DNA of 64,000 nucleotides from IMG/VR virus record IMGVR_UViG_3300005683_000068, positions 1-64,000 of that record. One strand, 5' to 3'. Positions within the stretch are counted from its first letter, which is position 1. Each line of letters starts with the position of its first letter. The position numbers and the translations under genes were made by a program. The DNA comes from a virus (Duplodnaviria > Caudoviricetes). The notes under the pieces are model-generated. The model saw only the letters and a list, made by a program, of their open reading frames with translations, was not told the DNA's origin and did not search any database. Positions 1 to 21,490 of the stretch are shown here, in pieces.

Positions 1-242
1 TCCTCATCATCCCAATCATCAATATCAGAATTATCCTCCTCATCCCCATCTTCTTCGTCCTCGTCCTCATCACCAGCATTCAATTCATCTCCTACCTGGT
101 CACAGATTTTCTTCATGTAAGGATCAGAAACACCCTCACCATCTGGCCAGCGGTAATCTTGTATATCAAGATTACCTTCATCATCAATGTCTGGATTATA
201 AAGTTGCTCTTCACTTAGTTTTGCGTCGTGTCTTACCGCCAT
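1..242 (-). CDS. Acidic (D/E-rich) hypothetical protein, runs off the left edge
   Basis: Not in the ORF track. ATG at 242 is preceded by GGAGG; frame is open to the edge (MAVRHDAKLSEEQLYNPDIDDEG...DEDEDEEDGDEED). Confidence 0.7.
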   Translation of the reverse strand, partial: MAVRHDAKLSEEQLYNPDIDDEGNLDIQDYRWPDGEGVSDPYMKKICDQVGDELNAGDEDEDEEDGDEEDNSDIDDWDDE

Positions 243-3200
243 TGTTATCCTCCTTCTTAGTTGAAGATAATGTGTTTAACCAAGGCTTCCATACTTCTGG
301 ATGAATATAACTCTTGAAAGCCATTCCAGGAGTATTATTTAGATGATCTGATACCATACCAGATAATTCAAGTTGTGCCTTTTTAAGAATTTTTACGTCC
401 TTTGCTTCATCACCAGTAAATTCAGGATGCTCATACTCATCAATTAGCTTTCTGGCAATCTGAGTGGCTTTGATTGTTCGGAGGTCCTTCACTGATATAT
501 CTTCAGAACCACCTACTTTATTGAAAATCTTTTTGAGAACTTCATTTGCATGACTGCTATTAGCCTCAGTAAATACAAAGTCTTTAGGCATTTTACCGGC
601 AAGCATTTCTTTTAGGAATGCTACATTGGTAGGATCCTTCACAGTTGTTTTGTTCAACACACCTTCCTTACCAACAAATCTCAATTGAACAGCATCCCCT
701 TTGATTGTGCAATGTCTGGCTTGGAGGGACGAGATTCCAAAATGACCATGCTTTACAGAATCAGCACTATCAGTTGGTCGTAATCCAGTCTCTCTAATCA
801 AATTAGCAATAGCGGCAGCCTGCCGTTCCCTAGATGAGAGTTGTTTCGTTTTCATTGCCTTGTCTAAGTAGGAATGCAATTTTGATAGATGAGGTTCAAT
901 AGTTGTAATTCTTTCCCACTTCTCATCCTGATTTTCTTCTCTTGTTTCTTTGGTGTATCTAGCCTGGTAAGAAAACCGTCCAGGTGTTTTCTCACTTTCT
1001 TGTCTCCAAGACAACAATGACTTCCCTTTGAGTTTTTCAGGCGGTTGTGACAAATCAGCCACCTTAATATCACTCATTGAAATATATGCTGGAGGAAATG
1101 TTCCTTCCATATCAAGGTCTTTAAGCTTCTTCTTTAGTTTCTCAGGCATTTGAGAACCGGGAGCGGTTCTTTTATCAGTAGGAAATCCATTAGCTTTTAG
1201 ACCAGCCTTAATATGCGGAGGTGGATCATAAGACTTCTTTGGTTTTTCTGTTGTCTTGTTTTTCTCTGATTTCTTAGCCAGTTTGGGATTAGCTTTGATA
1301 TGCCGAGCAACACTACCAGCCCGTAATTTTGCTTTGTCCTCTGGAGTCAAGGATTCAATAACGTCTTCTGGTATCCATTCTCCAGGAGCATACTTAACTC
1401 CATGAATAGTTACACCCCCTGGAGGAGCATGAAGTTTTCCTTGAGCATCACGCTTACCAAATCCCACACTCTCCTCATGCTGCTCAACTTTCTTCAATTT
1501 AGTGTAGTAATGTGGATCCTCAGTCAAATGGTCCATTGCTATTTCAAGAGCAATCTTAGGATCATTAGTATGCTCCATTTCTACTTTGATTCCCATTGCT
1601 ACTTGCTCTGGATCAAAGTCTTCTGGTTTGGCTTTATCCCCTTTACCTCCAGGAATCTTATCTTCCCTAAACTGTGCTGCTCCAGTTAAAGGAATAAAGG
1701 TATGGGTTCCATTCTTATCACTAAATACCAACCGATTGAAGACAGCGGCTTCACCATACAAACTATTTAGTTTGTTGGAATAATAAGGACCCAATCCAGG
1801 CTTCACATACGCAATAGTGATATGTGGTTTGTAGTCCGGGAATGTATCAGTGCATTCTAGGTTATCAGAAATGTACTTGTTGAGTTTTCGCAAGCCGCTA
1901 GATTCAACTTCCAATTTGACTACATCATAATCAGGCTTACCGTCCTTGTTTCTGCTTTCAAAGAAAGAACATCTGCCAATTTGAATTGCTACAGGAGCCT
2001 GTGATTGAACAACAGTACGGACTTCGTCCGCATCCTCAGTATGCAATCCATATTTAACTGTTACATGAGGATTGAGTACTCGCCCTGTAATACTATCATC
2101 CCCATAATCTGTTGGTTGCAAATCTACAAGATCAATCTGATCTCCAAGTTGACGAATCTTAAAGGTTAGATCACCAACAAGATTAAACTGGGTGCTTGAA
2201 AACTTGTGGGATGCTTCACCAAATTGAATGTTACCTTGTGGAGCAGCTTCTTGTTGTTGTGGTACTTCTTGCGGTACTTGTGAAGGCTGCCCACCTATCG
2301 CTCCACCTCCCATCGGACTACCAGCAGCATTTCCAGCAAATGATTTCACTAGATCAACTGGATCAATTTCAAACTCAACATCACCTCCCCAGTTCAACCA
2401 AGCCAAAGGACGCAAAACCTGATCCCGAATACATTGAACAATATCACTTGCTTCATTGTTACACACACTCAACAAGACAAGGAAAGGAATACTCCTGCCT
2501 GAGTAACCACTACCTGTATCTGCCGCTTTTACTACTTCAATTGGAACATCCGCACCTTTAAGAATATCATCATCACAATAATCAACCCAATTGAAAATAT
2601 CACTAGCACCAGGAACACCAGTTGGAGGATTATATCGAGTCAATTCTTTACCATTACTATCCAATAGTAATGGCAGAGTCAATGCAGCCCCAGATAATCT
2701 ATTCTCTCCAATTTCCCTCATCAAATCACGCCACGGAATAGTTTGTCCATTGGGCAATTGGGCATTTACATTCGGAGGATACCAAAAAATATCTCCAATA
2801 TAAGCATCCTTAATCATCCTCAATTGAACAAGCCGTTTGGCACCATGATCCATCCATTTCTCATACCAAGCAGGATATTGCCGACGTGTAACAGCATGAC
2901 CATACGGGCTGCCAAACTCCTCATTGAACTTCATCCACAAACACTGTGGATGGAACATAGGAATTCCTTTGATACGCTGTCCACATAGTTTATTCTTATA
3001 TTCAAGGGCACGGGCATCCTCTGGTGCAAAGTCTTTAAGCCCAGATACATCAATCAATCCAGTATGTTTATTCATCTTAAATAAACATTGGAGAGGTGCG
3101 AATCCCCATTTCTTTGCACTAACAACCCTAGTACGATGTTGATTCCAAAGGTAGTTCCATTGCTTCTTTACCCAAGTAGCTACTCTTTCATTCTTTGCCT

Positions 3201-3522
3201 TTACTGTAACCTCCAAAGCAGACAAGGCAGCATTGCGAACATTCAAGCTAAAATTGATAATAGGATCACTTGTCAACATCATTCTAGCAGTCCACAACCT
3301 CCACAAAGGAAGTCGTTGGACAAACAACTCACCATAGTAAGTATATCTTGTGCTCTTATAGTTCTCAGTAGGATCAGTAGTAAGAATCTGCTCCTTAATC
3401 TGAGAACGACTACGCCGACGTGTTTTCACTTCCATTGAAGTGGTCTGAGCGTCAGTATTATCTCCAGCAACAAGGATACTCTTATCCTTAAATTTATCAG
3501 TCTTTCCATTTGATTTGCTCAC
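211..3522 (-). CDS. Portal protein (Mu gp29/DUF935-like) fused to Acb1-like 2H phosphoesterase, DUF5661-like domain and type IB DNA topoisomerase
   Basis: aa1-~400 portal-like (KKWGFAPLQ, FGSPYG, YPAWYEK). 2H motifs HVTV and HITI (FPDYKPHITIAY). GIKVEMEHT...IAMDHLTEDPHYYTKL. TopIB catalytic set TGLR, FVGK, KDLRT, LNNT, KSYIHP. Confidence 0.8.
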   Translation of the reverse strand: MSKSNGKTDKFKDKSILVAGDNTDAQTTSMEVKTRRRSRSQIKEQILTTDPTENYKSTRYTYYGELFVQRLPLWRLWTARMMLTSDPIINFSLNVRNAALSALEVTVKAKNERVATWVKKQWNYLWNQHRTRVVSAKKWGFAPLQCLFKMNKHTGLIDVSGLKDFAPEDARALEYKNKLCGQRIKGIPMFHPQCLWMKFNEEFGSPYGHAVTRRQYPAWYEKWMDHGAKRLVQLRMIKDAYIGDIFWYPPNVNAQLPNGQTIPWRDLMREIGENRLSGAALTLPLLLDSNGKELTRYNPPTGVPGASDIFNWVDYCDDDILKGADVPIEVVKAADTGSGYSGRSIPFLVLLSVCNNEASDIVQCIRDQVLRPLAWLNWGGDVEFEIDPVDLVKSFAGNAAGSPMGGGAIGGQPSQVPQEVPQQQEAAPQGNIQFGEASHKFSSTQFNLVGDLTFKIRQLGDQIDLVDLQPTDYGDDSITGRVLNPHVTVKYGLHTEDADEVRTVVQSQAPVAIQIGRCSFFESRNKDGKPDYDVVKLEVESSGLRKLNKYISDNLECTDTFPDYKPHITIAYVKPGLGPYYSNKLNSLYGEAAVFNRLVFSDKNGTHTFIPLTGAAQFREDKIPGGKGDKAKPEDFDPEQVAMGIKVEMEHTNDPKIALEIAMDHLTEDPHYYTKLKKVEQHEESVGFGKRDAQGKLHAPPGGVTIHGVKYAPGEWIPEDVIESLTPEDKAKLRAGSVARHIKANPKLAKKSEKNKTTEKPKKSYDPPPHIKAGLKANGFPTDKRTAPGSQMPEKLKKKLKDLDMEGTFPPAYISMSDIKVADLSQPPEKLKGKSLLSWRQESEKTPGRFSYQARYTKETREENQDEKWERITTIEPHLSKLHSYLDKAMKTKQLSSRERQAAAIANLIRETGLRPTDSADSVKHGHFGISSLQARHCTIKGDAVQLRFVGKEGVLNKTTVKDPTNVAFLKEMLAGKMPKDFVFTEANSSHANEVLKKIFNKVGGSEDISVKDLRTIKATQIARKLIDEYEHPEFTGDEAKDVKILKKAQLELSGMVSDHLNNTPGMAFKSYIHPEVWKPWLNTLSSTKKEDNNGGKTRRKTK

Positions 3523-4063
3523 AACAACTTCTCCCTTTGTAGCTCTCTGAGTTTGACCGCCTCACGGGCTCTAATCAAAACCTGAGTTGCTAATTCCATG
3601 TTATCAGTTCTGGCAAGAATCTGATTGTATAATCCTTCAGGTGTTTTGTTATCTAACAGTGATAATTGCTCTTGTTCGTAAGCAAGCACAAACGGGATAT
3701 TAGCTATCCAACTTTCCTTCTCCTCTATTGTCCACTGCTGGAAATCACTGGGGATTCCTGGATAGTAACGGGCAAGGAGACAATCGCTTCTAATTTTTTT
3801 TTGCGATCATCCAATGATTTAATAATGCAACGATTTATACACTCAGTAAACTCCAACGCCATATTTTCAGCAAGATCACTATTACTCAACGACAATTTTT
3901 CAGCTAAGTAATCTATGATAAATCTGACCCGTCCACTTTGGGTAGGCTGCTGCTGAGCCTTCTCCAACATTCTACGAGCCTCAAAAATGTCAACCTTTAC
4001 TGAAGTTTCTCCATCCGGTGTTGTTAGTGTCAAAAACTCAGGTTTGCTAAGATGCAATTCCAT
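3519..4063 (-). CDS. -1 frameshift extended product (tail assembly chaperone GT-like)
   Basis: A9 slippery run at 3794-3802 (CGC AAA AAA AAA TTA). The -1 frame stays open (IRSDCLLARYYPGIPSDFQQW...REKLL) to a TGA overlapping the portal GTG. Confidence 0.7.
3725..4063 (-). CDS. Putative tail assembly chaperone (G-like, unshifted product)
   Basis: 112-aa ORF with a slippery site near its 3' end, in the structural operon. Confidence 0.55.
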   Translation of the reverse strand: MELHLSKPEFLTLTTPDGETSVKVDIFEARRMLEKAQQQPTQSGRVRFIIDYLAEKLSLSNSDLAENMALEFTECINRCIIKSLDDRKKKLEAIVSLPVTIQESPVISSSGQ

Positions 4064-4072
4064 ACATTCCTC

Positions 4073-5968
4073 TTACAACTCTAGGGGTTTAGAAGGATCA
4101 ATTGGAGTGGAAGACGACAACACAGTCCCAACATCCGTCTTGGCTTTATTAGGAACTCCTCGCAATCTGTAAATGTCGTAGCCTTTCACTTTGTAAACTT
4201 TACACCCAAATACCTCAAATGACAACTGAGGTGGTGTTTTCTTGCTTCCAACACAATCTAACTCACAATCAATATCAACCCCACCATAACTCTTAATCAA
4301 TGGAAAAACAGGGTAAGCACCATATCTCAGTGCTGCAAATTTAACAGCAACGTAAACAACAGGCAACCCTTGTCTTTCTGATATGTGTGCGTCCTGAGAA
4401 CTGACTGTTACTGGAGGGGCCGTTTCATTTCCGGGAAGCAAATCACCAGGAGATCCGACTTCAGAAAACACTGCTTGTTTATGATAATTGTTTCCTTCAA
4501 CTCTTCTCACTTCAATCTCTAACCCATAAGACAACCAACCAGCACTATGTAAGACCTTCCCATCTGCACCAGTAGGTAGTGGGGGGCATGTCATGGAAGG
4601 AAGGCCTTGTGACAACACAGGTCTTGGAACACTACTAGTATCACCTATTGTTTTCTCTTGTACCCCAGAACAATAATTCAAATAATCAACATCTTTAAGA
4701 ACAGTTCCAATTCCAGACACGCCTCTATTATTCCACAAAGGCTTCATTGAATTAGCCCAAGCATTATAATCCTGACTACCAAAAGAATCATAAACAGGAG
4801 GGCCTGTCAACGTGGTATTGAAGCCTTCAAACAAGTTACACGAATTCAAATTCTCCCAAAAGTTGTTTTGTACCATCCAAGTTATACTAGCCGAAGTGAC
4901 CCTACAATCATCAAACTTTTGATTTGACATTGTAAAATTCACAGGAATAACAACAATGGACTGCCCGCTGCTAGACCTTCTCACCGTTCCATCTGGATAA
5001 TGTGTAAGCTGCCTTTGTTTGCAAATCGCAGCCATTATGAAATACTGACCGGCTAGAGAACGAGCCACATAAGGACTGGTCTTGAGCACCATACTCATAG
5101 TCACAAATCCTTGTGACATGGTTGCGTTTTGAATGCCGCCACTGGAACTAAATTGCAACTCACCTTTTGCCAAAGTCATTCCAGTAGGTAAATCATCCCC
5201 AGGAAGATATTGGTCTATTACATTAAAGATCAGTTCGCTTTTATCATCAGTTTCATTCCAAGTATTACTAAGTCTTCTGAAATTTGGAGGGACTGTAATA
5301 GTCAACTTATCCCTCATACGATCAGCAGTAATTGTTCTATTGTTATTTTGGGTGTTTCGTTTTTGAACCACCTTAATAGAACCGCTTATGTTTCTTGTTG
5401 TGATACCTTCAAAATCATGGGACCAAGTGGTTGTGTAATTAAATGCCATCCAATACTGATAATCATAATCTGCTTCAACATCATGGCATTCAGAAGTAAA
5501 AAACTGCACAGACCAAGTCAATTCCCAGCAAATATCACTAATAGGAACCAGACTAATTTCTATAGGTTTAGGGCCATTATCCAAATCAGAATAAGTAACA
5601 ACAACTGCTTTAGATGAGTCATATCCAACGGCTCCCATACCTAAACCAAGATTAGATACTCTCAAAATCCTTCCTGGAGTTCCTAATAGTTTTCGTAGTG
5701 CTATCATATTCTCACCAAGATTAGAAGGGTTATCCTGAAACACCCAACATCTTACTGTGAGAACATTATCTATACCGATGATGTTTACATTTGCTCTGTC
5801 ATAACGAAATCTCTGTTTCATTTCATACATAGGAGGAGTTGCCCGAAAAACAACATTCCCTGATCCTATGATAGCAGTAACAGAAGCCGCATCACTTCCT
5901 CCAAACTGGACACCGTTGTATTCAACAGTATGGAAAGACAAAGGGGCGTTGAGAACATTGGTGGCCAT
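4073..5968 (-). CDS. Putative virion (tail/baseplate) structural protein
   Basis: 631 aa, beta-rich composition, directly after the tape-measure-like gene; no family recognised. Confidence 0.45.
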   Translation of the reverse strand: MATNVLNAPLSFHTVEYNGVQFGGSDAASVTAIIGSGNVVFRATPPMYEMKQRFRYDRANVNIIGIDNVLTVRCWVFQDNPSNLGENMIALRKLLGTPGRILRVSNLGLGMGAVGYDSSKAVVVTYSDLDNGPKPIEISLVPISDICWELTWSVQFFTSECHDVEADYDYQYWMAFNYTTTWSHDFEGITTRNISGSIKVVQKRNTQNNNRTITADRMRDKLTITVPPNFRRLSNTWNETDDKSELIFNVIDQYLPGDDLPTGMTLAKGELQFSSSGGIQNATMSQGFVTMSMVLKTSPYVARSLAGQYFIMAAICKQRQLTHYPDGTVRRSSSGQSIVVIPVNFTMSNQKFDDCRVTSASITWMVQNNFWENLNSCNLFEGFNTTLTGPPVYDSFGSQDYNAWANSMKPLWNNRGVSGIGTVLKDVDYLNYCSGVQEKTIGDTSSVPRPVLSQGLPSMTCPPLPTGADGKVLHSAGWLSYGLEIEVRRVEGNNYHKQAVFSEVGSPGDLLPGNETAPPVTVSSQDAHISERQGLPVVYVAVKFAALRYGAYPVFPLIKSYGGVDIDCELDCVGSKKTPPQLSFEVFGCKVYKVKGYDIYRLRGVPNKAKTDVGTVLSSSTPIDPSKPLEL

Positions 5969-5970
5969 TT

Positions 5971-7416
5971 TTAATCACCCAAAGATTCAGTCGTAATCCA
6001 AGGTTTTATAAAGTCCGGGAAGTCTTGAAGTTCATATTCTCTCCAATCCACCTCTGGTACTTGTGGGATAATATCCATGAAACCGCCTTGTATTTTTTCA
6101 TGGATGTTTACACCAGTTCCAGCATTACGAAGATTATCAATAACCTCCTCCCTAGCCCTTCTTAACTTCTCCCATTCTTCTCTAGCTGCTTCGGGACCTT
6201 CTCTAATTGCTATAAGAACATTGTTCCACGAATCCTTCCAATTAACAAAGAATTGCCCCCACCAATTATTAAAATCCCTCCATGAATCAGAAACTCTCAT
6301 AGCTTGCGATTCTGATGCAGCAATTTGAGGGCCATATTCCTGAGCGGTTTGTATGTTCCGCATCATGCGAGCAATATGAGATTCAGTTACAGCTATTGCT
6401 ACCTCTGGACTGTAACCCATTGTATCTTGAACACGCTGATTCTGAAAATAAGAACCAGCAGCAACACCAGCAGCCCCAATAGCACCAACAGCAGCTACAC
6501 CTCCCAATACTGTAGCTCCTATACCAACCGCTGTTGAAGATAACCCCAATGCCGCAGCAGCTTCGGCGGTAGCTGTAGAAGCAGCAGGTATCGCTGGACT
6601 AATAGTGCTTGTTATAGCTTGTCCTACTGGTCCGGATACATTCCCTGCTATGTTATTTATTCTACTTAATGCGTTCTGGACACCGTAGGAATCAATCTTC
6701 CCCTGCTCACTATCTCCTTCCCCTTGTACTGGAGGGGCTATTTTTTCTGATTCAGATATTATCTGTTCTTTTGTAAGAGGGGGTGGTTTTGGTATGTCAT
6801 ACTTGGCAGCACGCAACACCTCGTCTAATTCCTGTTGCTGCCTCATCCTAGCAGCCATTTCATCACGATGATCCTGAATCCGCGATTGCCTATCAAGTTC
6901 GGCTTGTTGTGCTAAGGAATCATTGTATTCCTTAGATGCTTGGCGTATCCGTTCCTCATCATTCAAATCTGTTTCTAAAGAACGTAAATATGGATCACGA
7001 TATGGTGCCTTTGGGAACTCATAACGCCGCATCTCATCCAAGATGTCATTTAAGGGTCTAGCCTCAGTGCGTATTTTTACATCTACCTGTGATTCTCTCT
7101 CAGCTATTTTTTGAAGATAGCTTTGAATTAAAGCATCATCTCCAGGTCTAGATAACTGATACGGAAAACTAGATTCCTGTGAAGGTTCTACTGAAGTGGC
7201 AATTGAAGGTATCTGAGGAATGGCAACAACCTGTTGCCACATTTGCCCTTTATCAACAAAGGCACCAACACCACCAGCAGACGTGTAAACCCCCTGGATC
7301 CCTTGAGCGTAATTAAGATCAGAGGGTGGATTGGGAAGGGGTCCAGTAGAACTATAACCAGTAGCCCCTACAGAAGATTCATCTTTGAATCTGATTACTA
7401 AGGAGGCTTCTTCCAT
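5971..7416 (-). CDS. Short tape-measure-like / ejection protein
   Basis: Helical charged segments plus an Ala/Gly hydrophobic stretch (AAAALGLSSTAVGIGATVLGGVAAVGAIGAAGVAAG); follows the tube-like gene. Confidence 0.45.
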   Translation of the reverse strand: MEEASLVIRFKDESSVGATGYSSTGPLPNPPSDLNYAQGIQGVYTSAGGVGAFVDKGQMWQQVVAIPQIPSIATSVEPSQESSFPYQLSRPGDDALIQSYLQKIAERESQVDVKIRTEARPLNDILDEMRRYEFPKAPYRDPYLRSLETDLNDEERIRQASKEYNDSLAQQAELDRQSRIQDHRDEMAARMRQQQELDEVLRAAKYDIPKPPPLTKEQIISESEKIAPPVQGEGDSEQGKIDSYGVQNALSRINNIAGNVSGPVGQAITSTISPAIPAASTATAEAAAALGLSSTAVGIGATVLGGVAAVGAIGAAGVAAGSYFQNQRVQDTMGYSPEVAIAVTESHIARMMRNIQTAQEYGPQIAASESQAMRVSDSWRDFNNWWGQFFVNWKDSWNNVLIAIREGPEAAREEWEKLRRAREEVIDNLRNAGTGVNIHEKIQGGFMDIIPQVPEVDWREYELQDFPDFIKPWITTESLGD

Positions 7417-7417
7417 T

Positions 7418-8044
7418 TTAGGTATCGTTAAAGAATCGTGCTTGACTAGTTGCTAGACCACTGGCATTGACAATGGCAGAATCTGCTTCATCTATCACAG
7501 GAAGACAAGCCACAGCTACAACCACATTTCGTTCCATTGCCCCCATAATAATTTCTAGATTATGAGTAGGAAGCACTGATACAAAAGGATATGTCCTAGT
7601 AATAGGTCCATAAGTTGCGGCTTGTGATCCAGGTAACGCAGTTAAAGTCAATGGGGCACAGAATTGATGCAGCATCGTTCCAGGACGAGGCATCAAACCA
7701 TGATCAGGATTTGCAGTTAGGGAGGGTTTTCCTGTAGTGGTGTTAAAACCACCAAATGGCCACAAGAATCGTCTTGTATTAGTAGTCCACTCCTTAATGG
7801 TAAGCAGTCCATAGCAACCACCTCCTTGAATCACCCAATCAATAATAGTCTGTCCCCATTGACTAGCCCTGACAGGAATGCCTTCCACTCTTTGTTGGAG
7901 ACGAACCACACCTTCCAACAAACCTATATTGAGAGCACCTCCAGTTAATTGGGAACTGCCCCAAGTAGCATGATAAGGTCCAGAAGGAATCAGAGGTCCG
8001 TCATTAGTAACCCCAGCACCGGAATAAATAATACTCTGTGTCAC
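7418..8044 (-). CDS. Putative tail tube protein
   Basis: 208 aa, G/T/P-rich beta-type sequence (LNIGLLEGVVRL...WGQTIIDWVIQGG); position after the neck genes. Confidence 0.45.
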   Translation of the reverse strand: MTQSIIYSGAGVTNDGPLIPSGPYHATWGSSQLTGGALNIGLLEGVVRLQQRVEGIPVRASQWGQTIIDWVIQGGGCYGLLTIKEWTTNTRRFLWPFGGFNTTTGKPSLTANPDHGLMPRPGTMLHQFCAPLTLTALPGSQAATYGPITRTYPFVSVLPTHNLEIIMGAMERNVVVAVACLPVIDEADSAIVNASGLATSQARFFNDT

Positions 8045-8054
8045 AAACTAACTC

Positions 8055-8351
8055 CTATGCAAGAGGATTCACATGAAGACCACGAGATTCCAAAGCCCCA
8101 GCAATGTCCTCATTGGTTACATTTACAATTGATGCTCCTTCACAACCATCAACAAAAACTGCCAGTTTGTGAAGATCATCCAATTTCATACCATCAAGAA
8201 CATAACCATAATGAGACAAACCAAATTCAGGATTCCAAGCAACAGGACTAACCTTCAAAGGCTGCCCTTTCAAAAACCCAGTCAAACCACCCTGATCCAA
8301 AAGATCAGCATTGGTATTCGCCTTACGAACTAAAAGAATCTTCATACACAA
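8055..8351 (-). CDS. Hypothetical protein
   Basis: ORF tightly packed in the operon. Confidence 0.6.
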   Translation of the reverse strand: MCMKILLVRKANTNADLLDQGGLTGFLKGQPLKVSPVAWNPEFGLSHYGYVLDGMKLDDLHKLAVFVDGCEGASIVNVTNEDIAGALESRGLHVNPLA

Positions 8352-8367
8352 CTCCTCTTTTTGTCAA

Positions 8368-8871
8368 TCATTTACACAATACATCACCAGTCTCAGGATT
8401 GAATTCAAGAGGCTGATCCGGCACAGTCTCTTGAAGCATCTTCATGGACACTTTGATGTTGTCTGTGAAGTATTCGGTATTGCGTTCCGAAAATTGGATC
8501 GCATGTTTGATCTGACTGTGTTTGGCATGATACTGCTTGATATTACTCACCAGATCATGCTGACGTTGGGTTTGAGGTTCAAATAGCTTGAGCATTGTTT
8601 GCTCCTGTTCAGAGTGTGCGGTTGTTTTAGGAAGTCTATAACAACCTTGTGAAGAAAACATGCATTTTCCACCTTGCTTTTGAATATGATTAGCCAATGA
8701 CTTAGAACTAACACCTTCAACATCAAAGTGGTTAATGTGAGACAACGTGTTTTGTATTGTTCCTACACGCTTGTTCTTTTCCTTGATATGTGTTGTGTGT
8801 TCTCCGTCGTGATCTAATTCAAAACCAGCCTTCTCAAGATGGTTTTTATGTGCATCTAGCCAGTGTGGCAT
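8368..8871 (-). CDS. His-rich putative internal head protein with QFSE motif
   Basis: His-rich; contains IQFSE (8485-8496), the motif shared with the portal and protease linkers. Confidence 0.45.
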   Translation of the reverse strand: MPHWLDAHKNHLEKAGFELDHDGEHTTHIKEKNKRVGTIQNTLSHINHFDVEGVSSKSLANHIQKQGGKCMFSSQGCYRLPKTTAHSEQEQTMLKLFEPQTQRQHDLVSNIKQYHAKHSQIKHAIQFSERNTEYFTDNIKVSMKMLQETVPDQPLEFNPETGDVLCK

Positions 8872-8875
8872 GTTG

Positions 8876-9445
8876 TTACCCTTGTGCTCCAGAACGTAAG
8901 TTCTGTTCTCTGTCTAAACCACGGAAAGTTAATACATATCCAAACCATGCCGATGTTGAATTATCATCGGCGATGCCTAATGTTTCAATTCTGCCGCGTC
9001 CTTTGTAAAACAACGGACGATTGAACTGTACTCCCATTTCTGAATTTGCAAGACTGAAGTAGGCATTCAATGCTTGCATAAACAGGTAGTTGGCGTGTAA
9101 TCCATTCCAACTTGGTAACATCACCCTTTGATAATAATCCGTCAGCATGAAGGATCGTATCAAATAAGGATCATTGGTTATTTTCAGTGTTCCTCGAAGG
9201 TCTTTGATTGCTAGATGTTCCGGTCTCATCCAAATAGCAACATTGATCCTCAGTATTTCTTTGATGCTATCGGTAAGTTCGTTTCCAACTTCTATACCAG
9301 CATCATCAATTGCAATGTAAAAATTACCAGCATCTAATGCCGGTTTGTATTCATACTGGACACCACATTCATTTGCCTTCCAACCATTCTTCTTCCTAAA
9401 CCAATCCTGGCAGTATTCCAACGCCATAGACATTCCCATACTCAT
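8876..9445 (-). CDS. Putative tail terminator/completion protein
   Basis: Size and position after the Mu gpG-like gene. Confidence 0.4.
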   Translation of the reverse strand: MSMGMSMALEYCQDWFRKKNGWKANECGVQYEYKPALDAGNFYIAIDDAGIEVGNELTDSIKEILRINVAIWMRPEHLAIKDLRGTLKITNDPYLIRSFMLTDYYQRVMLPSWNGLHANYLFMQALNAYFSLANSEMGVQFNRPLFYKGRGRIETLGIADDNSTSAWFGYVLTFRGLDREQNLRSGAQG

Positions 9446-10269
9446 GGCGTTCCTCCTTGATAAATTTCACCTATACGAGCCAGTCCAGAAATAGCCATGC
9501 CAAGAATTTGTCTCCACCAATCATTAGGAAACTTCTCAGGCCACAATCTACGTCGTTTGTTTTTGTTCTTAGCATTATGATGGTAACTCATGTACTTCAC
9601 ATTTGTACCAACCACAATACAATCTGGCTCAACATCAAATCTTTGTTCACTGCCACCCTTACCTCCGGGTTTCTCATACTTAGCTTTAGGACCATTTTCA
9701 TATAAGATGCCTGGAGTTAAACTACCCCGCCCGCGTCCTGTGTCCACTAGAATCTGTACTTTGCGATTACCATACACTTCCAACTTAGTTTTAGCCCCAC
9801 GCTCCTTCATAATAATCCATGCAACAGCAGCGGCATGGGACTTGGCTTCTTGTTCTGTATGTCCCCTCAACATATATCTAGCAAGATAACGTGAGTAGAT
9901 TTGTCTCCATTCTTTATACTGCTGAGATGTTAGTAATCCTTTCTTATTACCAGGGCCATAATGATGAGCACGCCCTAGCCCTGCTTCTTTCTTCAAAGAA
10001 GCCATTTCGCCTTGACCAAATCTACGTCCGTAAGCAAGATATTCTTTAGAGAGAGGAGGCCAAACAGTTCCATCTGCACCTTCAAAACCACGAGACAGTT
10101 CTTCAAAGTTGAACTTTACTAGTTCCAAAACCTTAAAACCAATCCGTAGCTTAAAGCCTTCAGCTATTTGGTTTTCATCACTAATGCGGCCAGAAAGAAT
10201 CCCAGGCAAGTTGCGGATTAGAGCACGCAAAGCTGGTTTGTTATCTGAAGTAATAACAGCTTCTGGCAT
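9442..10269 (-). CDS. Phage virion morphogenesis protein (Mu gpG / tail completion-like)
   Basis: Motifs WPPLS..Y, ILVDTGR.RGS, VGTNVKY..YH. Confidence 0.7.
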   Translation of the reverse strand: MPEAVITSDNKPALRALIRNLPGILSGRISDENQIAEGFKLRIGFKVLELVKFNFEELSRGFEGADGTVWPPLSKEYLAYGRRFGQGEMASLKKEAGLGRAHHYGPGNKKGLLTSQQYKEWRQIYSRYLARYMLRGHTEQEAKSHAAAVAWIIMKERGAKTKLEVYGNRKVQILVDTGRGRGSLTPGILYENGPKAKYEKPGGKGGSEQRFDVEPDCIVVGTNVKYMSYHHNAKNKNKRRRLWPEKFPNDWWRQILGMAISGLARIGEIYQGGTP

Positions 10270-10273
10270 GACA

Positions 10274-10783
10274 TTACCACAGTCCCGGCATACCTGCTGG
10301 ATTACGTTTCACTCCATCGACAGGGTAAGCTCTTGTGCTTTCCTCAAGATCAACTCTAATCGGTGCATCCACTTTCGATACTTCTGGTTTGAAGTTGGTC
10401 ACGGATGGTAAATGATCGAAACTAGGATTCTGCTCTGGTACTTCAAACCTACCAAACTTTATCTCAGCTAATTGTTGCCGATAAGTTTGAACCTCATCAA
10501 TGATTGCCGGAGGTGGTGGATTGCCCCGCCTGGCGATTAGATACCAACAAGCCAAATAAGCATTACACCATTTACACCATGCATTCCCTGACAATTGACT
10601 CAGAATGTACTGCTTGCAAAGACTTTGATTCATCTCAACCGCAGCACGTTCTATAGCCCCTGTAATGTATGCCGTCTGTGCTGGAGATTCTACTCCTGTT
10701 CTGTCATCATCAATACAAGCTAGAATAAAAGGTTCACCAATGATACTAGCAATATCATTTCGATTGCAGTAGGTTGTGGTCAT
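10274..10783 (-). CDS. Head-tail adaptor (Mu gp36/DUF1320-like)
   Basis: YCNRNDI...AIERAAVEMNQSL...LACWYLIARR...YRQQLAEIKFG pattern; downstream of the capsid gene. Confidence 0.65.
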   Translation of the reverse strand: MTTTYCNRNDIASIIGEPFILACIDDDRTGVESPAQTAYITGAIERAAVEMNQSLCKQYILSQLSGNAWCKWCNAYLACWYLIARRGNPPPPAIIDEVQTYRQQLAEIKFGRFEVPEQNPSFDHLPSVTNFKPEVSKVDAPIRVDLEESTRAYPVDGVKRNPAGMPGLW

Positions 10784-11142
10784 TAGGTCTTTCCTACTAC
10801 ATCAACTGTACCATTAGTATTTGGAACAAGTTTGATAAAACCAAACGGATGGATTTTAGTAATATCAAACACATTCCATTTAGATGCAACTACTGTAACC
10901 ACACCATTAGTTCCAATGCTATCAACCAGTACATAGGTTCCAGCAGCAGCATCAGAAGCATACACAGAAAGACTAGTAATGCCGGCTGAAGGCTTGGCTG
11001 CAATAGCCTGATAGTCTCGAATGTCAATCTCATCACAACTGCCAAGGGTTGTATTAACTACGGCACCAAGAACTGTACCGTATCGACGCTTAATTGTCTC
11101 TGCACCAGGAGAATTAACAGGAACTAAAGTAACCACAGCCAT
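10783..11142 (-). CDS. Hypothetical structural protein
   Basis: ORF coupled to its neighbours in the head operon. Confidence 0.55.
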   Translation of the reverse strand: MAVVTLVPVNSPGAETIKRRYGTVLGAVVNTTLGSCDEIDIRDYQAIAAKPSAGITSLSVYASDAAAGTYVLVDSIGTNGVVTVVASKWNVFDITKIHPFGFIKLVPNTNGTVDVVGKT

Positions 11143-11165
11143 TGATTTACTCTTTATTCAAAAAT

Positions 11166-11214
11166 GTGCGAGGGGGAGGCGAGGAGTTGCAAATACAAGC
11201 CTTCCCCCTCGCAC
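11166..11214 (-). terminator. GC-rich hairpin with T-tract (intrinsic terminator/attenuator)
   Basis: GTGCGAGGGGGA / TCCCCCTCGCAC inverted repeat followed by ATTTTT on the minus strand, intergenic after the capsid block. Confidence 0.65.
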
Positions 11215-11230
11215 CAGGCGAACATCCTTC

Positions 11231-11545
11231 TTATTTCTTTTTTGGAGCATTAGAAGGCATAGGGTGCATTACTTTCTTTTCCACTTCGGGCTGGGGAGCA
11301 GGCTGAGGAGTTGGCTTCTCATCCTTTGTTCCCCAATACCCATCAATCTTCTCCATAGTACCACTAGGCATCTCTTTCCTAGCATTACTAAGAAACACAT
11401 CCAAACTATCTGTCTCACTGCCAAGTTCTAAAAGTCTTGTGAGTTTACTTTTTCCTGTTCCGGTCTTGCTCAAATGACTCACCAAATCAGAAACCTCAGG
11501 CATTGTCTTAGACAGATCATATTCCTTCTTCTTCTCCACAGCCAT
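11231..11545 (-). CDS. Hypothetical protein downstream of the major capsid gene
   Basis: Probable start MAVEKKK at 11545 with GAGGAG RBS (ORF track starts at 11644). Confidence 0.6.
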   Translation of the reverse strand: MAVEKKKEYDLSKTMPEVSDLVSHLSKTGTGKSKLTRLLELGSETDSLDVFLSNARKEMPSGTMEKIDGYWGTKDEKPTPQPAPQPEVEKKVMHPMPSNAPKKK

Positions 11546-11643
11546 ACAAAGAACTCCTCTTAAGAAAATAAAAAGCAGGGCCGATAGCTTTGCTACCCTA
11601 GATAGCCGTTTATCGACCCTGCCCTCTCCACCGCTACACCTCA

Positions 11644-12783
11644 TTACGGCACAACATCAGCAGTAGCAATTGCAGCCGGAACGTACAATGCAGGGAATCC
11701 ATTGTGGACCGTACAAAGATTCCATCCAGAAGGATCCCAAGTAGGATAACCATAAGGATAGAAACCGCTACGGAAAGCACGAACCCCCATCGGTCCTTCC
11801 GTCACCACTTCACCACCATTGAGATACTGAACCCACATTTGATTTGGTGAAGGGATGAAAGACACTTGATCATTCCCAATCAAGTGATCCAGTGCATAAG
11901 CACTACCATTCCAAATGTTGAGTTGGTAATCAACAACATGCCACATCAACCACGGAATGGCCCGCAGTTTGAATTCAAACCGACCAGGCCCATCCCGTGT
12001 AATCGTCTCAAACGGCGACTGAGAGGTCCCAGCCTGTGCTTTCACATAGTCATTGTTGAGAACATATTGGATACCAACACTGTTGCAAATGGCATGTTCA
12101 ATGCCCATACCAGTAAGAGCATTCATTGCATCATTGACTGAATAACAATGTGCAGGAATGTTAGTAGTGGTTGTTGCCCATGAAGCACCAATGATGTTAC
12201 CCGCTCCCAACATATTCAACTGGTTCTTGTTTCCAGTAGGAACTTGGAAGTCAATGGTCTCATCACCACCTGTGAATCCTTGGCGAAGTTCATCACCATT
12301 CTGATCGAATGTATAACTGCCACGCAAAAGAGCGGCAGTTTGGAATTCGATCATATTGGCAACCTTCTCAGCCAGAAACCGTTTCTGACGCATGATGTAG
12401 TTTTCACCCATGCTATCAACAACGGTTACAGCCTGCCCGATCTGGCGACGGTTCACCAAATCCTCATCCGTAAGAGGGATTCGTTCTGCACTGCGAGGAA
12501 TAGTAAACCGAACACGTCCAACCTTTTGAGGTTTGGTGTTCATGTTTGCCGCTCCTGGCATACGACCGGATGCCAAATCCTGCGTCCGGTTAAAAACATC
12601 ATAAGACCCTTCACGCAACGGGTAATCAATCATATTACCCGATTGATTTGCAGGATCGCGAGCAGTCATTCCCCAACCGAACAGGTCAGCTAGAACCGTG
12701 CCCGGAAGTTGAATGCGGGTTACTTCTCGAAGGATTACTTCAGGAGCGAGAATCTCCTGCACACTACGACCGGCCATAATCAA
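11644..12783 (-). CDS. Major capsid protein (HK97 fold, lambda gpE-like)
   Basis: 379 aa; gpE-like pattern (YDVFNRTQDLASGR, IEFQTAALLRG, IDFQVP, SGFYPY, FPALYVPAAIATADV); follows protease and decoration genes. Confidence 0.8.
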   Translation of the reverse strand: MIMAGRSVQEILAPEVILREVTRIQLPGTVLADLFGWGMTARDPANQSGNMIDYPLREGSYDVFNRTQDLASGRMPGAANMNTKPQKVGRVRFTIPRSAERIPLTDEDLVNRRQIGQAVTVVDSMGENYIMRQKRFLAEKVANMIEFQTAALLRGSYTFDQNGDELRQGFTGGDETIDFQVPTGNKNQLNMLGAGNIIGASWATTTTNIPAHCYSVNDAMNALTGMGIEHAICNSVGIQYVLNNDYVKAQAGTSQSPFETITRDGPGRFEFKLRAIPWLMWHVVDYQLNIWNGSAYALDHLIGNDQVSFIPSPNQMWVQYLNGGEVVTEGPMGVRAFRSGFYPYGYPTWDPSGWNLCTVHNGFPALYVPAAIATADVVP

Positions 12784-12812
12784 GCTCTCCTATTCAAATT
12801 GATATTCAAAGA

Positions 12813-13601
12813 CTAAGCAACGGTCATTGTAGTACCACCAAGGTTCTCAACGATCCATCGCAAGGTCCCGGCAGTATCAATGTAAACACACGTAACACGA
12901 CACCTACTCCCAATCTTCTGAGATGCAGTGCTATAAGTTACAGTGTCAGCACCAGCATCACCAAAAGCAATAATATCGTCAGCCGAACCAGCAGACGAAA
13001 TTACCATGTTATTATCCGTCGTTTGTAGAAACTCAAACGACAATCCATTTGCCTTAGTGGGCAATGTAAATGTTGCCGCACCAGTAGCAATGAACAAGTC
13101 TCCATCGTCAGCAGCAACCACTGTGTAGTTAGTTGATTTGATCTGACGCTTACGATGCCTGACCAAAAACAAACTGCCGTGTGGCTCGGCCTGCATCAAG
13201 TGAAAACCCGTCCTGAGCAGAACTGCAAGGGCTTGGTTATCAGAACCAACAAGATCAGCGGTGTTCTGAATCAAACCCCCCTTCAAGATACTCTTAACCT
13301 TATCAGCAGCAACACCATACCGATCAAGCATGGTAGTGCCTTGTTCCAGAAAACCAACAGGGACCTGAGTTCCATCGTCAGCATCAGGATCATATGCATA
13401 ATCCAATCCATCAGAAGCCTTGCGTCCAAGCAAGAAACCACCACGCAAGGTAGTGGTAGGAGTATTACCAGAATCAACCGTAGTTGACTTGATATGAATT
13501 TTCTGAGTAAACCGCTGATGTTGATTGTCAGGACCGGAACCCCAAAGTTGGTATTCCTCAGTCTCTTTGATAGTATCAAATCCCGGAGTCTGGTCTGGCA
13601 T
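12813..13601 (-). CDS. Head decoration protein with extra C-terminal beta domain
   Basis: TLRGGFLLGR...YDPDADDGTQVPVGFL resembles gpD-like decoration proteins; second domain STNYTVVAADDG...FTLP. Confidence 0.65.
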   Translation of the reverse strand: MPDQTPGFDTIKETEEYQLWGSGPDNQHQRFTQKIHIKSTTVDSGNTPTTTLRGGFLLGRKASDGLDYAYDPDADDGTQVPVGFLEQGTTMLDRYGVAADKVKSILKGGLIQNTADLVGSDNQALAVLLRTGFHLMQAEPHGSLFLVRHRKRQIKSTNYTVVAADDGDLFIATGAATFTLPTKANGLSFEFLQTTDNNMVISSAGSADDIIAFGDAGADTVTYSTASQKIGSRCRVTCVYIDTAGTLRWIVENLGGTTMTVA

Positions 13602-13652
13602 GGTTCGGCTCCCTTTCTATTGTGAGTACGCTTGCCAGCGATTAAAACGAAA

Positions 13653-16112
13653 CTAACGACGCATGGTAGTCGGCGGAGGCAGTTGCATACTGCCCCTAGG
13701 ATTCACAAGTCCAATTGGACTATGTTTCACAAGTTCTTCTGCCCTAGCAGGATCAACGTGCATTGCTCCTAGCAATTGTCCATCGGGTGTTGTTTCAAAG
13801 AATTGTGTTGAATTTGCTTCCTCACGATATACAGCATTCCCATAAGCATCAGTGCCTACTTTAATCTGACCCTTTGGTGATTCTGCTTCTTTTACATCCT
13901 CTACCTCAAACTGGAGTGAAGGAGGCAAACTAGATGCCAACATCTCTGCAACCTCAACACCTGAGAAGGATGGTTTTTCCTTACCTTCAGAAAACTGGAC
14001 ACAGTTATCACTTGATTGATAGGAAGCAAGCAACCTATTCTTTAGTGTGGGTGGAATTTTGGCTGCATTGATTTTTGAAACAGCCTCATTTCTTGCCGTC
14101 TCATTACGGAGGTTTTCTTTCTCCTCCTCATATTGCTGAGCCTTTAGTTCAGCTTGCTTACGTTTTTCCCTCTCCTGCTGCAATTGTTCTTGCTCACGCA
14201 AGATTGCTTGTCTAACTCTAACCGGCAACGCGGCCAGGTCCTCTTCAGAGAATGGCATGGGAGCATCAGTGACATTTGCTTTGTTGTCTTCATCGTCAGG
14301 CTCCGCCTCTGCTTCAGCTTCCATTTCAGCCTTAATGCTAGAGTTAATAGCAGCAAGCAGAACATCAATACTGTGTTCATCATCAAAACAGAAATCACTA
14401 GGAAGAACAATACCTTTCTGGTTAAGACCAGCAAGCACAGCAGACAACTTGCTCTTGTCTGTTGCCTTAGGAGGCATGTCCGGATTGGTGTTCACATCCG
14501 GCTGCATTGTCTCAGGAGGTGTTGAGGATTCTGATTCGGCTGATTCCTCAGTATCCAAATCCTCAGCCTTCTTCTTCTTGGTCTGTTCATCCATTGGATT
14601 GTTGTCCTTTGGATCTTCCGCGTGCTGAGATTGCTTGTTCACTTTGCCTCCCATTTTCTTGTAAACGGATGTTACGACAGCCCAATACTTCCTGTTACCC
14701 TCGCCGCCGTATCTGTTGCCGATCACCTTCTTGGCTTTGGACCAGATTCCTTCGTCCTCTACCCAAGGGGCAGGATTACCAGTGGAACCAAATGGTTCCT
14801 TCATCATGTGCTGGCCACCATGTTGTTTATGGAACATGGCTTCTTCACCTAGTTCATTATCTTCATCTGTCAGTCCAGCTTCAATCTTAGCTAGGACTTT
14901 ATTGTGTTCTTGGACTGTGAGGTTGTCCCAATCAATACTTTCATCTTCCCCACTGGGATTGGTAACACCTGGCTTGTGAGCATCTACACTGAGGGAATTC
15001 TTATAGTGCTCATCAGGAGGCATGGTAGAAGGCGGTGTTACGTTATCCATATCCTCACCGTGTTGGGACGCTAAGGACCTCAAGTGGTTGTGAAGATCGG
15101 TATGTCCTTGACCTTCTTTAACCAGCTTGCCTCCATTGTAGTGATTCCAAGAGCCGTTGGAATAATGCTCTATCAAGCCATGCTTACCATGAGAAAAACT
15201 CCTCATGGTATCGGCTTTGCCCGTCCCCAATTGCTTAGAGGACATCTTAAATCCGTGCTTCTGAAGCAGCTTATGTCCAGTGTTACCTTCTTCATAGAAC
15301 TGCTCAGAATCATCCATATCCTCACCGTGTTGGGAATCTTCCGCTGTATGGTAATGAGCATTTTTGCAAAGATGATCGCCAGTACAAGTAATGTTTCTGG
15401 CACTCTCACTATTGAACTTACCATGCAATTTCCCACGGTAAGTTGTCTGTTCTTTAGAATATCGTTTTGGAATAATGCTGGAAAATGTTGCTGATTTGCC
15501 AGCGTGTTCCCCACTATGGAACTTCACATGGAATGTTCCATAGTGATCTTTGTTAGCAACTGGTTTACCAACCTCATTGAATTGCTCAGCATCCAATGGT
15601 TCACATTCACCCTCAGTGAACTGCCAGCAATCCTCGCTCAGGGCAAGGGTTTCAATCTCGCCCTGGTGAGGATTACCCGGCAACGGAGTAAACGCGAAAT
15701 GACGGATGACTGGTCCTTCATACACACCAGCCTTCTCACAGACATAGTGTGGACGGAACTCAGGACTGGTAAATCTTAGAGTACCAGCTTCCTTAGCTTT
15801 CAATACCGCTTCTGGAACATCTTTTGCTTCCCAAGCGATAGCTCCATCCTCAATTGCTACACTAGTAATCCAGCCGGCTCCCTTTCCATCAGCAGAAGCA
15901 AACTGCTCAGTTTCATCATCACTTGCATTGATAGGAGCGTGCTTCAAAAGCAATGGAATAGGGACACCGGCCTTGATTGCTTTGTTCGTTCCTTCAACAA
16001 AGGAACGCAATTTTTCCAAGGAGAGTCGATGCCCACGATAGACACCAGGGCCAAAAGCTGATTTTTGTTTAAGGATTGCCATGTGATTATTATATGTCCA
16101 ATGGTTTAACAA
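13653..16112 (-). CDS. Prohead protease (Mu gpI-like)-scaffold polyprotein with inserted modules
   Basis: N-term GPGVY, PLLLKH, GWI, FTSPEF, HFAFTPLP; C-term coiled-coil scaffold; eight Q[FHY]xE motifs. Confidence 0.75.
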   Translation of the reverse strand: MLNHWTYNNHMAILKQKSAFGPGVYRGHRLSLEKLRSFVEGTNKAIKAGVPIPLLLKHAPINASDDETEQFASADGKGAGWITSVAIEDGAIAWEAKDVPEAVLKAKEAGTLRFTSPEFRPHYVCEKAGVYEGPVIRHFAFTPLPGNPHQGEIETLALSEDCWQFTEGECEPLDAEQFNEVGKPVANKDHYGTFHVKFHSGEHAGKSATFSSIIPKRYSKEQTTYRGKLHGKFNSESARNITCTGDHLCKNAHYHTAEDSQHGEDMDDSEQFYEEGNTGHKLLQKHGFKMSSKQLGTGKADTMRSFSHGKHGLIEHYSNGSWNHYNGGKLVKEGQGHTDLHNHLRSLASQHGEDMDNVTPPSTMPPDEHYKNSLSVDAHKPGVTNPSGEDESIDWDNLTVQEHNKVLAKIEAGLTDEDNELGEEAMFHKQHGGQHMMKEPFGSTGNPAPWVEDEGIWSKAKKVIGNRYGGEGNRKYWAVVTSVYKKMGGKVNKQSQHAEDPKDNNPMDEQTKKKKAEDLDTEESAESESSTPPETMQPDVNTNPDMPPKATDKSKLSAVLAGLNQKGIVLPSDFCFDDEHSIDVLLAAINSSIKAEMEAEAEAEPDDEDNKANVTDAPMPFSEEDLAALPVRVRQAILREQEQLQQEREKRKQAELKAQQYEEEKENLRNETARNEAVSKINAAKIPPTLKNRLLASYQSSDNCVQFSEGKEKPSFSGVEVAEMLASSLPPSLQFEVEDVKEAESPKGQIKVGTDAYGNAVYREEANSTQFFETTPDGQLLGAMHVDPARAEELVKHSPIGLVNPRGSMQLPPPTTMRR
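15045..15335. repeat. 24-bp exact direct repeat (15045-15068 and 15312-15335) encoding SQHGEDMD
   Basis: atccatatcctcaccgtgttggga occurs twice, 267 bp apart. Confidence 0.9.
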
Positions 16113-21115: not shown

Positions 21116-21490
21116 TTAGTCCTCTTTACGTGGCACAATAGCTACACAATCACGTCCAGACATACACAAATAGCTCTTGCCTTTCAAAACTACTTTGAAA
21201 GGTGCTCGCATTCCCATAAAGAATACCATGTCCCCTACCTTTATTGGATTAGGAACAAATGTTCCACTATCACGATAAGCACCAGGACCAGACTTCACCA
21301 CAACACCTTTCTGAGTATCATCTACTCCTACCTTGATGTTATCTGGTAAAGCTACGCCTCCTCTCGTCTTAGTTTGAATAATAGGATCAATCAAAATGTA
21401 ATCCCACAACGGCTCAAACTCTTCATAACCAACTTCTGTCTTTCCGTTTTCCATTTCACAACTCCTCAGGTAAATAGAAATCAAACCCAA
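21116..21490 (-). CDS. groES: GroES-like co-chaperonin
   Basis: FEPLWDYILI...TRGGVALP...GVVVKSGPG...IKVGDMVFF. Confidence 0.85.
   Translation of the reverse strand: MGLISIYLRSCEMENGKTEVGYEEFEPLWDYILIDPIIQTKTRGGVALPDNIKVGVDDTQKGVVVKSGPGAYRDSGTFVPNPIKVGDMVFFMGMRAPFKVVLKGKSYLCMSGRDCVAIVPRKED

Follow-up and report, generated by a model that had tools for sequence, protein, structure and literature searches.

The herpesvirus UL26 protein joins an N-terminal protease of the assemblin fold to a C-terminal scaffold, carries release and maturation sites and leaves the capsid protein uncut. Among phages, T4 gp21 and the head proteases of giant phages cut after Glu in short x-x-E motifs; proteases of the gp21 type process their own C-terminus, cut the scaffold at several sites and trim internal proteins that are later ejected, and the ejection proteins of phiKZ, 201phi2-1, and SPN3US are cut at (A/S/G)-x-E (PMC5694885, PMC9958956). 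For polyvalent proteins—multi-domain effectors on portal or MuF proteins—delivery with the DNA has been proposed, and zincin-like metallopeptidase domains were suggested to carry out the processing (Iyer, Burroughs, Anand, de Souza, Aravind 2017; PMC5512222). Here, we describe a tetrapeptide, Q-[F/H/Y]-x-E, that marks domain borders in two large head proteins, a protease-scaffold and a portal fusion, of an uncultured phage (IMG/VR record IMGVR_UViG_3300005683_000068). The stretch of DNA analysed, referred to as the window, is the first 64 kb of the 74,217-bp single-contig genome, in which the minus strand carries nearly all genes. We propose that the motif, with Phe favored over His and His over Tyr, is probably the recognition site (P4–P1) of the lineage's own prohead protease, used on carrier proteins inside the head.

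The proposed system resembles the processing of IPI-III and Alt in T4 and its phiKZ-type counterparts in the protease fold and in a motif ending in Glu, and would share with them C-terminal self-processing, multi-site cutting of the scaffold, and head-internal proteins delivered with the DNA. It differs by Gln at P4 and an aromatic residue or His at P3, by a capsid protein without a site, by a ~74-kb genome with a lambda-type capsid and decoration protein, and in being known from sequence alone. Moreover, T4 and phiKZ use free cargo with a short N-terminal leader (10-20 amino acids [aa] in the T4 capsid-targeting sequence [CTS]), whereas here the cargo is fused in series within the protease-scaffold or at the portal C-terminus. 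As in UL26, one site lies directly after the protease and a second near the C-terminus (here QFFE, ~55 aa from the end); yet UL26 cuts at Ala-Ser, and here up to ~1,500 aa of unrelated cargo stand between protease and scaffold. With polyvalent proteins, the locus has in common the portal or MuF fusions and a repertoire of 2H, ADP-ribosyltransferase (ART), InPase, GNAT, and LPD domains, but Pfam revealed no zincin-like domain here, and the junctions are marked by a tetrapeptide shared with the protease's own scaffold. Type IB topoisomerase (TopIB) as cargo is not discussed in the text of the polyvalent-protein paper (PMC5512222). Phage Mu, finally, supplies the nearest named families for the protease (gpI/gpZ; weak) and for the portal (gp29; above cut-off), with MuF following the portal in both, but its I, portal, and F proteins do not contain Q-[F/H/Y]-x-E beyond chance and bear no cargo fusions; a code of this kind is therefore not general to Mu-like heads. 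What is new relative to these known kinds is the motif, its carriers, and the cargo fused in series; internal-protein processing, polyvalent proteins, and the herpesvirus protease-scaffold are known. A literature search, covering few subscription journals, found no paper on the tetrapeptide, on cargo within a protease-scaffold, or on portal-TopIB or portal-sigma fusions.

The two carriers divide at their motifs into the following parts:

13653-16112, minus strand: protease-scaffold open reading frame (ORF), 819 aa
15612-16082, minus strand: predicted prohead protease domain, aa 11-167, ending in QFTE (aa 164); assigned from the structural model, the structure match, and conserved residues
15573-15584, minus strand: motif QFNE, aa 177
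15321-15572, minus strand: putative cargo module M1, aa 181-264, His/Lys-rich, ending in QHGE (aa 261); bounded by motifs, no Pfam match
15291-15302, minus strand: motif QFYE, aa 271
15054-15290, minus strand: putative cargo module M2, aa 275-353, ending in QHGE (aa 350); bounded by motifs, no Pfam match
14616-15053, minus strand: putative cargo module M3, aa 354-499, ending in QHAE (aa 496); no Pfam match
13653-14615, minus strand: conserved scaffold part, aa 500-819, kept in all homologues including the cargo-less ~400-aa forms
14124-14135, 13986-13997, and 13794-13805, minus strand: scaffold motifs QYEE 660, QFSE 706, and QFFE 770
211-3522, minus strand: portal fusion, 1103 aa
2215-3522, minus strand: portal domain, aa 1-436, with a Q/P/G-rich linker ending in QFGE 433 (2215-2226); assigned from Pfam Portal_Mu and the model
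1663-2214, minus strand: putative 2H phosphoesterase cargo, aa 437-620, ending in QFRE 617 (1663-1674)
1471-1662, minus strand: putative DUF5661 cargo, aa 621-684, ending in QHEE 681 (1471-1482)
211-1470, minus strand: C-terminal product, aa 685-1103, comprising a small beta domain, a Lys-rich linker, and a type IB topoisomerase

The original prediction had named 12 copies of the motif, the residues and nucleotides of which all proved correct upon a sequence check. Its eight copies in the protease-scaffold stand, but eight is not the total, as a ninth (QFFE) lies at aa 770. Likewise, its residue numbers are right for the 819-aa ORF and would shift by -10 with the probable true start: ATG 16082, which is Met11 of that ORF and gives a protein of 809 aa, is preferred over TTG 16112 because the homologue consensus begins there and the database copy has 809 aa.

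Counted against 20,000 shuffles, the nine copies in the protease-scaffold compare with a mean of 0.35, with not a single shuffle reaching nine, and the three copies in the portal with 0.25 expected (P=0.0014). All other 103 ORFs of the genome hold six copies where 4.6 are expected; with these at chance level, the enrichment is restricted to the two large head proteins. It amounts to ~25-fold in both carriers here and in the 47 protease-scaffold homologues, and to ~8-fold in the 89 portal homologues, both sets being introduced below. In an unbiased scan of all 'a-b-x-c' patterns, QFxE, QHxE, and QYxE ranked at or near the top, and forms of the same composition in permuted order occurred 2-47 times as compared to 439 times for the motif, that is, 10 to 100 times more rarely. 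Only the Q, the F/H/Y, a preference for a small third residue, and the E are conserved, with variable flanks. With just these four positions, the element looks like a short protease site.

When queried with tblastn against 50,697 deposited phage genomes, the portal found matches through its cargo domains only, and a pattern scan of IMG/VR returned no relative. A large metagenomic protein collection, in turn, yielded 47 homologues of the protease-scaffold (477-1180 aa) and 89 of the portal (607-1891 aa), many of them on contigs of 46-77 kb. One relative, P0118, is located on an NCBI contig of 1.4 Mb and may belong to a prophage. Every one of the 47 protease-scaffold homologues carries the motif, in 5-16 copies each (452 in total including the window protein, 17 expected), and the window portal and its 89 relatives together have 291 copies, as opposed to 36.5 expected. 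The protease-scaffold homologues share a conserved N-terminal portion of 150-160 aa and a conserved C-terminal third and differ in the middle. One motif always stands at aa 150-180, after the protease domain, and QFFE is usually found ~55 aa from the C-terminus. The latter (aa 770 in the window protein) is the best-conserved site of the family: in an alignment of 48 sequences, Q706, F707, and E709 are invariant, and Q770, F772, and E773 nearly so. By comparison, module M3 is present in just one homologue. In the portal homologues, the first copy (QFxE or QYxE) mostly closes a Q/P/G-rich linker at aa 408-440, just past the portal domain, and the preceding aa 1-385 are free of the motif in all 89 portals where 7.8 copies would be expected. 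Such avoidance in the folded part of the portal is what selection against stray sites would produce.

An exhaustive search with the protease domain among 1.84 billion representative proteins gave 169 clusters. Nearly all of the 39 closest are long, cargo-bearing forms, and the largest cargo array of the family, in P0149 (1,717 aa), contains 27 copies of the motif (0.8 expected). More distant clusters represent ordinary protease-scaffolds of 400-500 aa, most with 1-6 copies of QFxE in the scaffold part (~0.1 expected). Because these distant, ordinary protease-scaffolds carry it, the motif belongs to the protease family's own scaffold. Even in cargo-less relatives of ~400 aa, where identity in the protease domain falls as low as 30-45%, QFxE persists behind that domain and inside the scaffold, the latter holding 1-6 copies. 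As judged from these relatives, the motif is older than the cargo, and the cargo-bearing clade reused it as a linker. In a clade of ~52-kb phages (L004:10001-13486, L005:10001-12889, P0099-P0111, P0122), R-F-x-E takes the place of Q-F-x-E where the portal domain ends, and the scaffolds (406-412 aa) show a mix of RFSE, NFSE, AFSE, and QFxE. This pattern may fit a relaxed P4 in portal and scaffold alike, while being too weak to serve as a proof of co-variation.

The N-terminal domain of the protease-scaffold had been taken for a prohead protease, and the gp21/herpesvirus protease fold is indeed its best match. AlphaFold modelled aa 11-145 with a predicted local distance difference test score (pLDDT) above 90. 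The best structural match of the model (aa 6-145) is T4 gp21 (5jbl_B; root-mean-square deviation 3.5, 119 aligned residues), with a Z of 8.1 that lies near the level called common for unrelated folds by the aligner, followed almost exclusively by herpesvirus proteases at Z 4-6 (including 1vzv and 4v08). Foldseek, too, ranked T4 gp21 and the herpesvirus proteases first, albeit at weak E-values of 0.08-0.3. Residues H58, S116, and H138 are invariant in the 48 sequences. The Pfam family Mu-like_Pro (PF10123) matched two of the 48 members weakly and below cut-off (E 0.0012 or weaker) and did not match the window protein; besides the gp21-fold domain, Pfam revealed no peptidase domain in the protease-scaffold and none in the portal. 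A profile search of PDB sequences with the protease-scaffold alignment was discarded, as it produced just one, spurious match to spectrin. The predicted catalytic domain is joined to the scaffold in one protein, the gene of which precedes those for decoration and capsid proteins, and the scaffold third was predicted to consist mostly of long helices (at aa 553-603 and 631-683), as expected of a scaffold.

The second carrier has the make-up of a polyvalent protein, with portal, 2H, DUF5661, and TopIB in one polypeptide, to which the portal homologues add two to five further domains. Portal_Mu (PF06074) matches aa 79-222 with 27.6 bits (cut-off 23.9), and PHROG 113 (portal) matches as well. The 2H domain at aa 483-574 (PF13563, 2_5_RNA_ligase2; E 1.3e-7, 32.3 bits at a cut-off of 27; Acb1 weak) has two H-x-T motifs, H-V-T and H-I-T. 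DUF5661 was recognized at aa 637-681 (Pfam E 8e-12) and TopIB at aa 859-1052 (Topoisom_I, PF01028; E 6.7e-22, 78.4 bits at a cut-off of 23.7); K-S-Y-I-H-P near the C-terminus presumably corresponds to the region of the TopIB active-site Tyr, which it resembles. The AlphaFold model resolved into folded blocks for the portal (aa 34-403), 2H (440-617; pLDDT above 90), DUF5661 (637-672), the beta domain (691-733), and TopIB (786-1095), separated by low-confidence linkers at aa 404-439 (pLDDT below 50), 618-636, 673-690, and 734-785. The first three linkers each hold or abut a motif, and the fourth is without one. The beta-domain stretch (aa 685-733; 1321-1470) contains H-A-P-P-G-G-V-T, which recurs in portal P0108, and the region matches a protein of Vibrio phage vB_VpaM_VPs20 (Chaseviridae).

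That the motif marks domain boundaries, as originally claimed, was borne out by aligning the homologues: the motif stays at the junctions, and the cargo between motifs varies. In nine portals (that of the window and eight others), each Pfam domain is framed by successive motifs, and the domain envelopes themselves are free of them. The domains bracketed in the eight others include 2H/Acb1, GNAT, DUF5661 (in P0056, P0070, P0073, and P0100), sigma-70 regions 2 and 4 together, InPase, zeta toxin, TopIB, and MuF; across all portals, the variety of cargo spans 2H, DUF5661, TopIB, sigma factor, GNAT, zeta toxin, ART, InPase, and MuF.

Motifs also coincide with the points at which homology breaks off. 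When all homologue pairs were compared, 37% of the internal ends of local alignments fell within 6 aa of a motif, as compared to 9% of random positions (median distance 11.5 versus 43.5 aa). Segments obtained by cutting at the motifs cluster, at a reciprocal coverage of at least 70%, into families of tight lengths, among them one of 25 members of ~180 aa that includes the 2H module (25 portals) and one of 29 members of ~349 aa. Modules, moreover, move between carriers. A ~73-aa module is common to scaffold P0022 (aa 305-381) and portal P0100 (aa 745-813) and motif-flanked in both, and a homologue of window module M1 (aa 181-264) forms the second segment of a polyprotein, encoded at L001:20765-21631, that occupies a variable gene slot described below. 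At the DNA level, an exact 24-nt direct repeat (15045-15068 and 15312-15335, 267 nt apart), which encodes S-Q-H-G-E-D-M-D, flanks one 89-codon unit of the protease-scaffold, module M2. The repeat has the appearance of a scar, left when a module was recently inserted or duplicated through recombination at the motif-coding stretch.

Some of the cargo deserves separate mention. Six portals (P0063, P0064, P0072, P0073, P0075, and P0077) contain a complete sigma-70-type factor with regions 2 and 4; Pfam coordinates, consulted for P0063, P0064, and P0073, show it as a single module between motifs, which would mean that the virion carries a sigma factor along. Further portal cargo comprises zeta-toxin kinases, GNAT, ADP-ribosyltransferases, InPase, ParB, and an intein. 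Small His-rich modules with a shared L-x-K-H-G-[F/W/Y] start, which belong to no Pfam family, were seen in the scaffold protein (15054-15290) and the slot protein (8485-8871) of the window and in two related loci (L001:20765-21040, L002:10230-10451); a HicA-like reading of them was dropped, the single HicA_toxin match among 48 proteins having an E of 0.095, and a ChaB-like reading of M3 found no support in Pfam. Indeed, M1, M2, M3, the N-terminal part of the slot protein, and four modules of relatives gave nothing above noise in Pfam at E up to 5. Outside the lineage, an annotated DUF2213 protein of phage VPs20 (L008:5338-6606) has a DUF5661 domain in its mid-region and no Q-F-x-E; its gene sits between those for the large terminase and a DUF2184 protein, and we read it as a protease-scaffold. 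Cargo in proteins of this type would thus not be limited to the uncultured lineage.

A third head protein had been suggested on the basis of a single motif:

8368-8871, minus strand: slot protein, 167 aa, with QFSE at aa 126 (8485-8496); candidate free-standing cargo

The QFSE is there, and its status as a head protein is plausible from the position of its gene, while one copy by itself is not significant (0.16 expected, P=0.15 in 20,000 shuffles). The gene occupies a variable slot between a conserved gene for a 189-aa protein (8876-9445) and one for a 98-aa protein (8055-8351). In loci L001, L002, and L003, the same slot encodes proteins of 288, 362, and 439 aa with three, four, and five motifs, respectively, and in the ~52-kb phage clade it is empty. 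For the slot protein itself, five related loci contained no homologue, Pfam gave no match above cut-off, and the ESM Atlas offered no usable relative (query-normalised TM-scores all below 0.4). Its motif lies 38 aa from the C-terminus, unlike the N-terminal leader in T4.

In the mechanism we envision, Gln would occupy P4, Phe, His or Tyr P3, a small residue P2, and Glu P1. During prohead assembly, both carriers, and probably the slot protein too, would become enclosed in the shell; the portal C-terminus faces the capsid interior, and cargo fused to it would therefore sit inside the head. The protease would then cut after each Glu and free itself at QFTE 164-167. Cuts at aa 660, 706, and 770 would reduce the scaffold to pieces of 35-60 aa, able to exit the shell. 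As predicted products, the protease-scaffold would yield three small modules, and the portal a 184-aa 2H phosphoesterase, a 64-aa DUF5661 piece, and a 419-aa TopIB product, with scaffold-derived cargo present at roughly scaffold copy number and portal-derived cargo at 12 copies. We infer that the head would retain these modules until they pass into the cell together with the DNA. The cargo-release interpretation passes every sequence-level test and is supported to that extent.

How else might the motif be explained? That it is a chance product of linker composition is already refuted, and we accord it practically no weight: the linkers are rich in Gln and Glu, but none of the 20,000 shuffles reaches the observed count, permuted forms number 2-47 against 439, and conservation spans proteins of 30-70% identity. 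A better case can be made for a docking or targeting peptide that recruits cargo into the prohead by binding the capsid interior, the scaffold or the protease, and that is never cut, leaving the polyproteins whole. Binding motifs can take the form of short conserved peptides in disordered linkers, and the T4 capsid-targeting sequences combine targeting with cleavage. Still, one tag per protein would suffice for docking, and here both sides of a module are tagged, with up to 27 copies per protein. Besides, the motif splits the scaffold into 35-60-aa pieces and sets the protease apart, as befits clearance by cutting, and proteases of the same fold follow a cutting rule that agrees with the fixed Glu at the end of the motif. 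We consequently regard docking alone as unlikely, while ranking it above the other alternatives.

Slightly less probable, in our estimation, is cleavage by a different enzyme, either a host protease or another phage protease such as a caspase-like one. The head module of L001 does have a Peptidase_C14 gene, and catalysis by the N-terminal domain is a prediction. This caspase-like gene, however, is found in just one of five related loci, and non-virion proteins of the genome show the motif no more often than chance predicts, whereas the gp21-fold domain accompanies the motif in every homologue, including the minimal ~400-aa forms, and as its sole constant partner makes a different protease unlikely. 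We think it more improbable still that the motif acts mainly at the DNA level, as microhomology for the shuffling of modules, with a peptide devoid of any role. The exact 24-nt motif-encoding repeat that flanks one module would suit that explanation, as would the movement of modules between carriers exactly at motifs. Yet conservation is at the protein level, with one free position and variable flanks, the motif is kept in cargo-less scaffolds without shuffling, and it is avoided inside the folded portal domain. More likely, microhomology is a by-product that aids shuffling.

Several observations weigh against recognition by the lineage's own protease, our preferred explanation. The protease-scaffold had no tblastn match among the deposited phage genomes, which left no cultured relative with proteomics to draw on. 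Since the homologues are mutually related, the copies pooled over them are non-independent events. The structural match is middling and the Foldseek E-values are weak, as noted, and the Mu-like_Pro matches all remain below cut-off. Furthermore, two of the conserved sites (aa 660 and 706) are placed by the model in helical or well-ordered stretches. The capsid protein is without the motif, and the protease would therefore act on internal proteins only. Lastly, phage Mu, whose protease family is the nearest named one, does not use the motif.

If the motif is a cleavage site, the head cargo of this entire uncultured lineage could be catalogued from sequence, dozens of small modules without a family would gain candidate status as early effectors or anti-defence factors, polyvalent proteins fused to portal or MuF would be separable without a metallopeptidase, and a ~150-aa protease plus a four-residue tag might serve as a capsid-loading tool, like the T4 capsid-targeting sequence. 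A bolder version, to which we give slightly less than an even chance, holds that the tetrapeptide is a general, portable loading-and-release code, such that any module flanked by it in the scaffold, at the portal C-terminus or in the slot gene is packaged and freed, with delivery at high copy number from the scaffold and at 12 copies from the portal. If so, the cargo would be a first-minute toolkit, delivered as protein before gene expression and including whole sigma factors, TopIB, Acb1-like 2H proteins, zeta-toxin kinases, and many small His-rich proteins. Packaged sigma factors and packaged TopIB would be new kinds of phage-delivered protein, no paper on either having turned up in the literature searched. 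Head-carried, injected proteins are usually known from virion proteomics only; under a portable code, the injected proteome of an uncultured phage would become readable directly from sequence.

The carriers belong to a head module whose order on the minus strand is terminase, protease-scaffold, decoration protein, capsid protein, small conserved genes—among them one for a Mu gp36-like adaptor—and portal fusion. Its other assigned genes are:

21481-23133, minus strand: large terminase
12813-13601, minus strand: gpD-like decoration protein (Pfam and PHROGs matches), without a copy of the motif
11644-12783, minus strand: lambda gpE-type major capsid protein (Pfam and PHROGs matches), without a copy of the motif
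genome 72586-74163 (L006:8586-10163), minus strand: separate MuF (head morphogenesis) gene, 525 aa, outside the window and directly downstream of the portal across the contig end

The separate MuF gene encodes two copies of the motif; one of them lies within the MuF domain, and the protein was not counted as a substrate. A QYKE in a 275-aa protein (9442-10269) was taken as chance, because the three orthologues in L001-L003 are without it. In the related locus L001, the head-tail module additionally includes, at L001:18954-20155, the caspase-like Peptidase_C14 gene together with a weak SNase-like gene.

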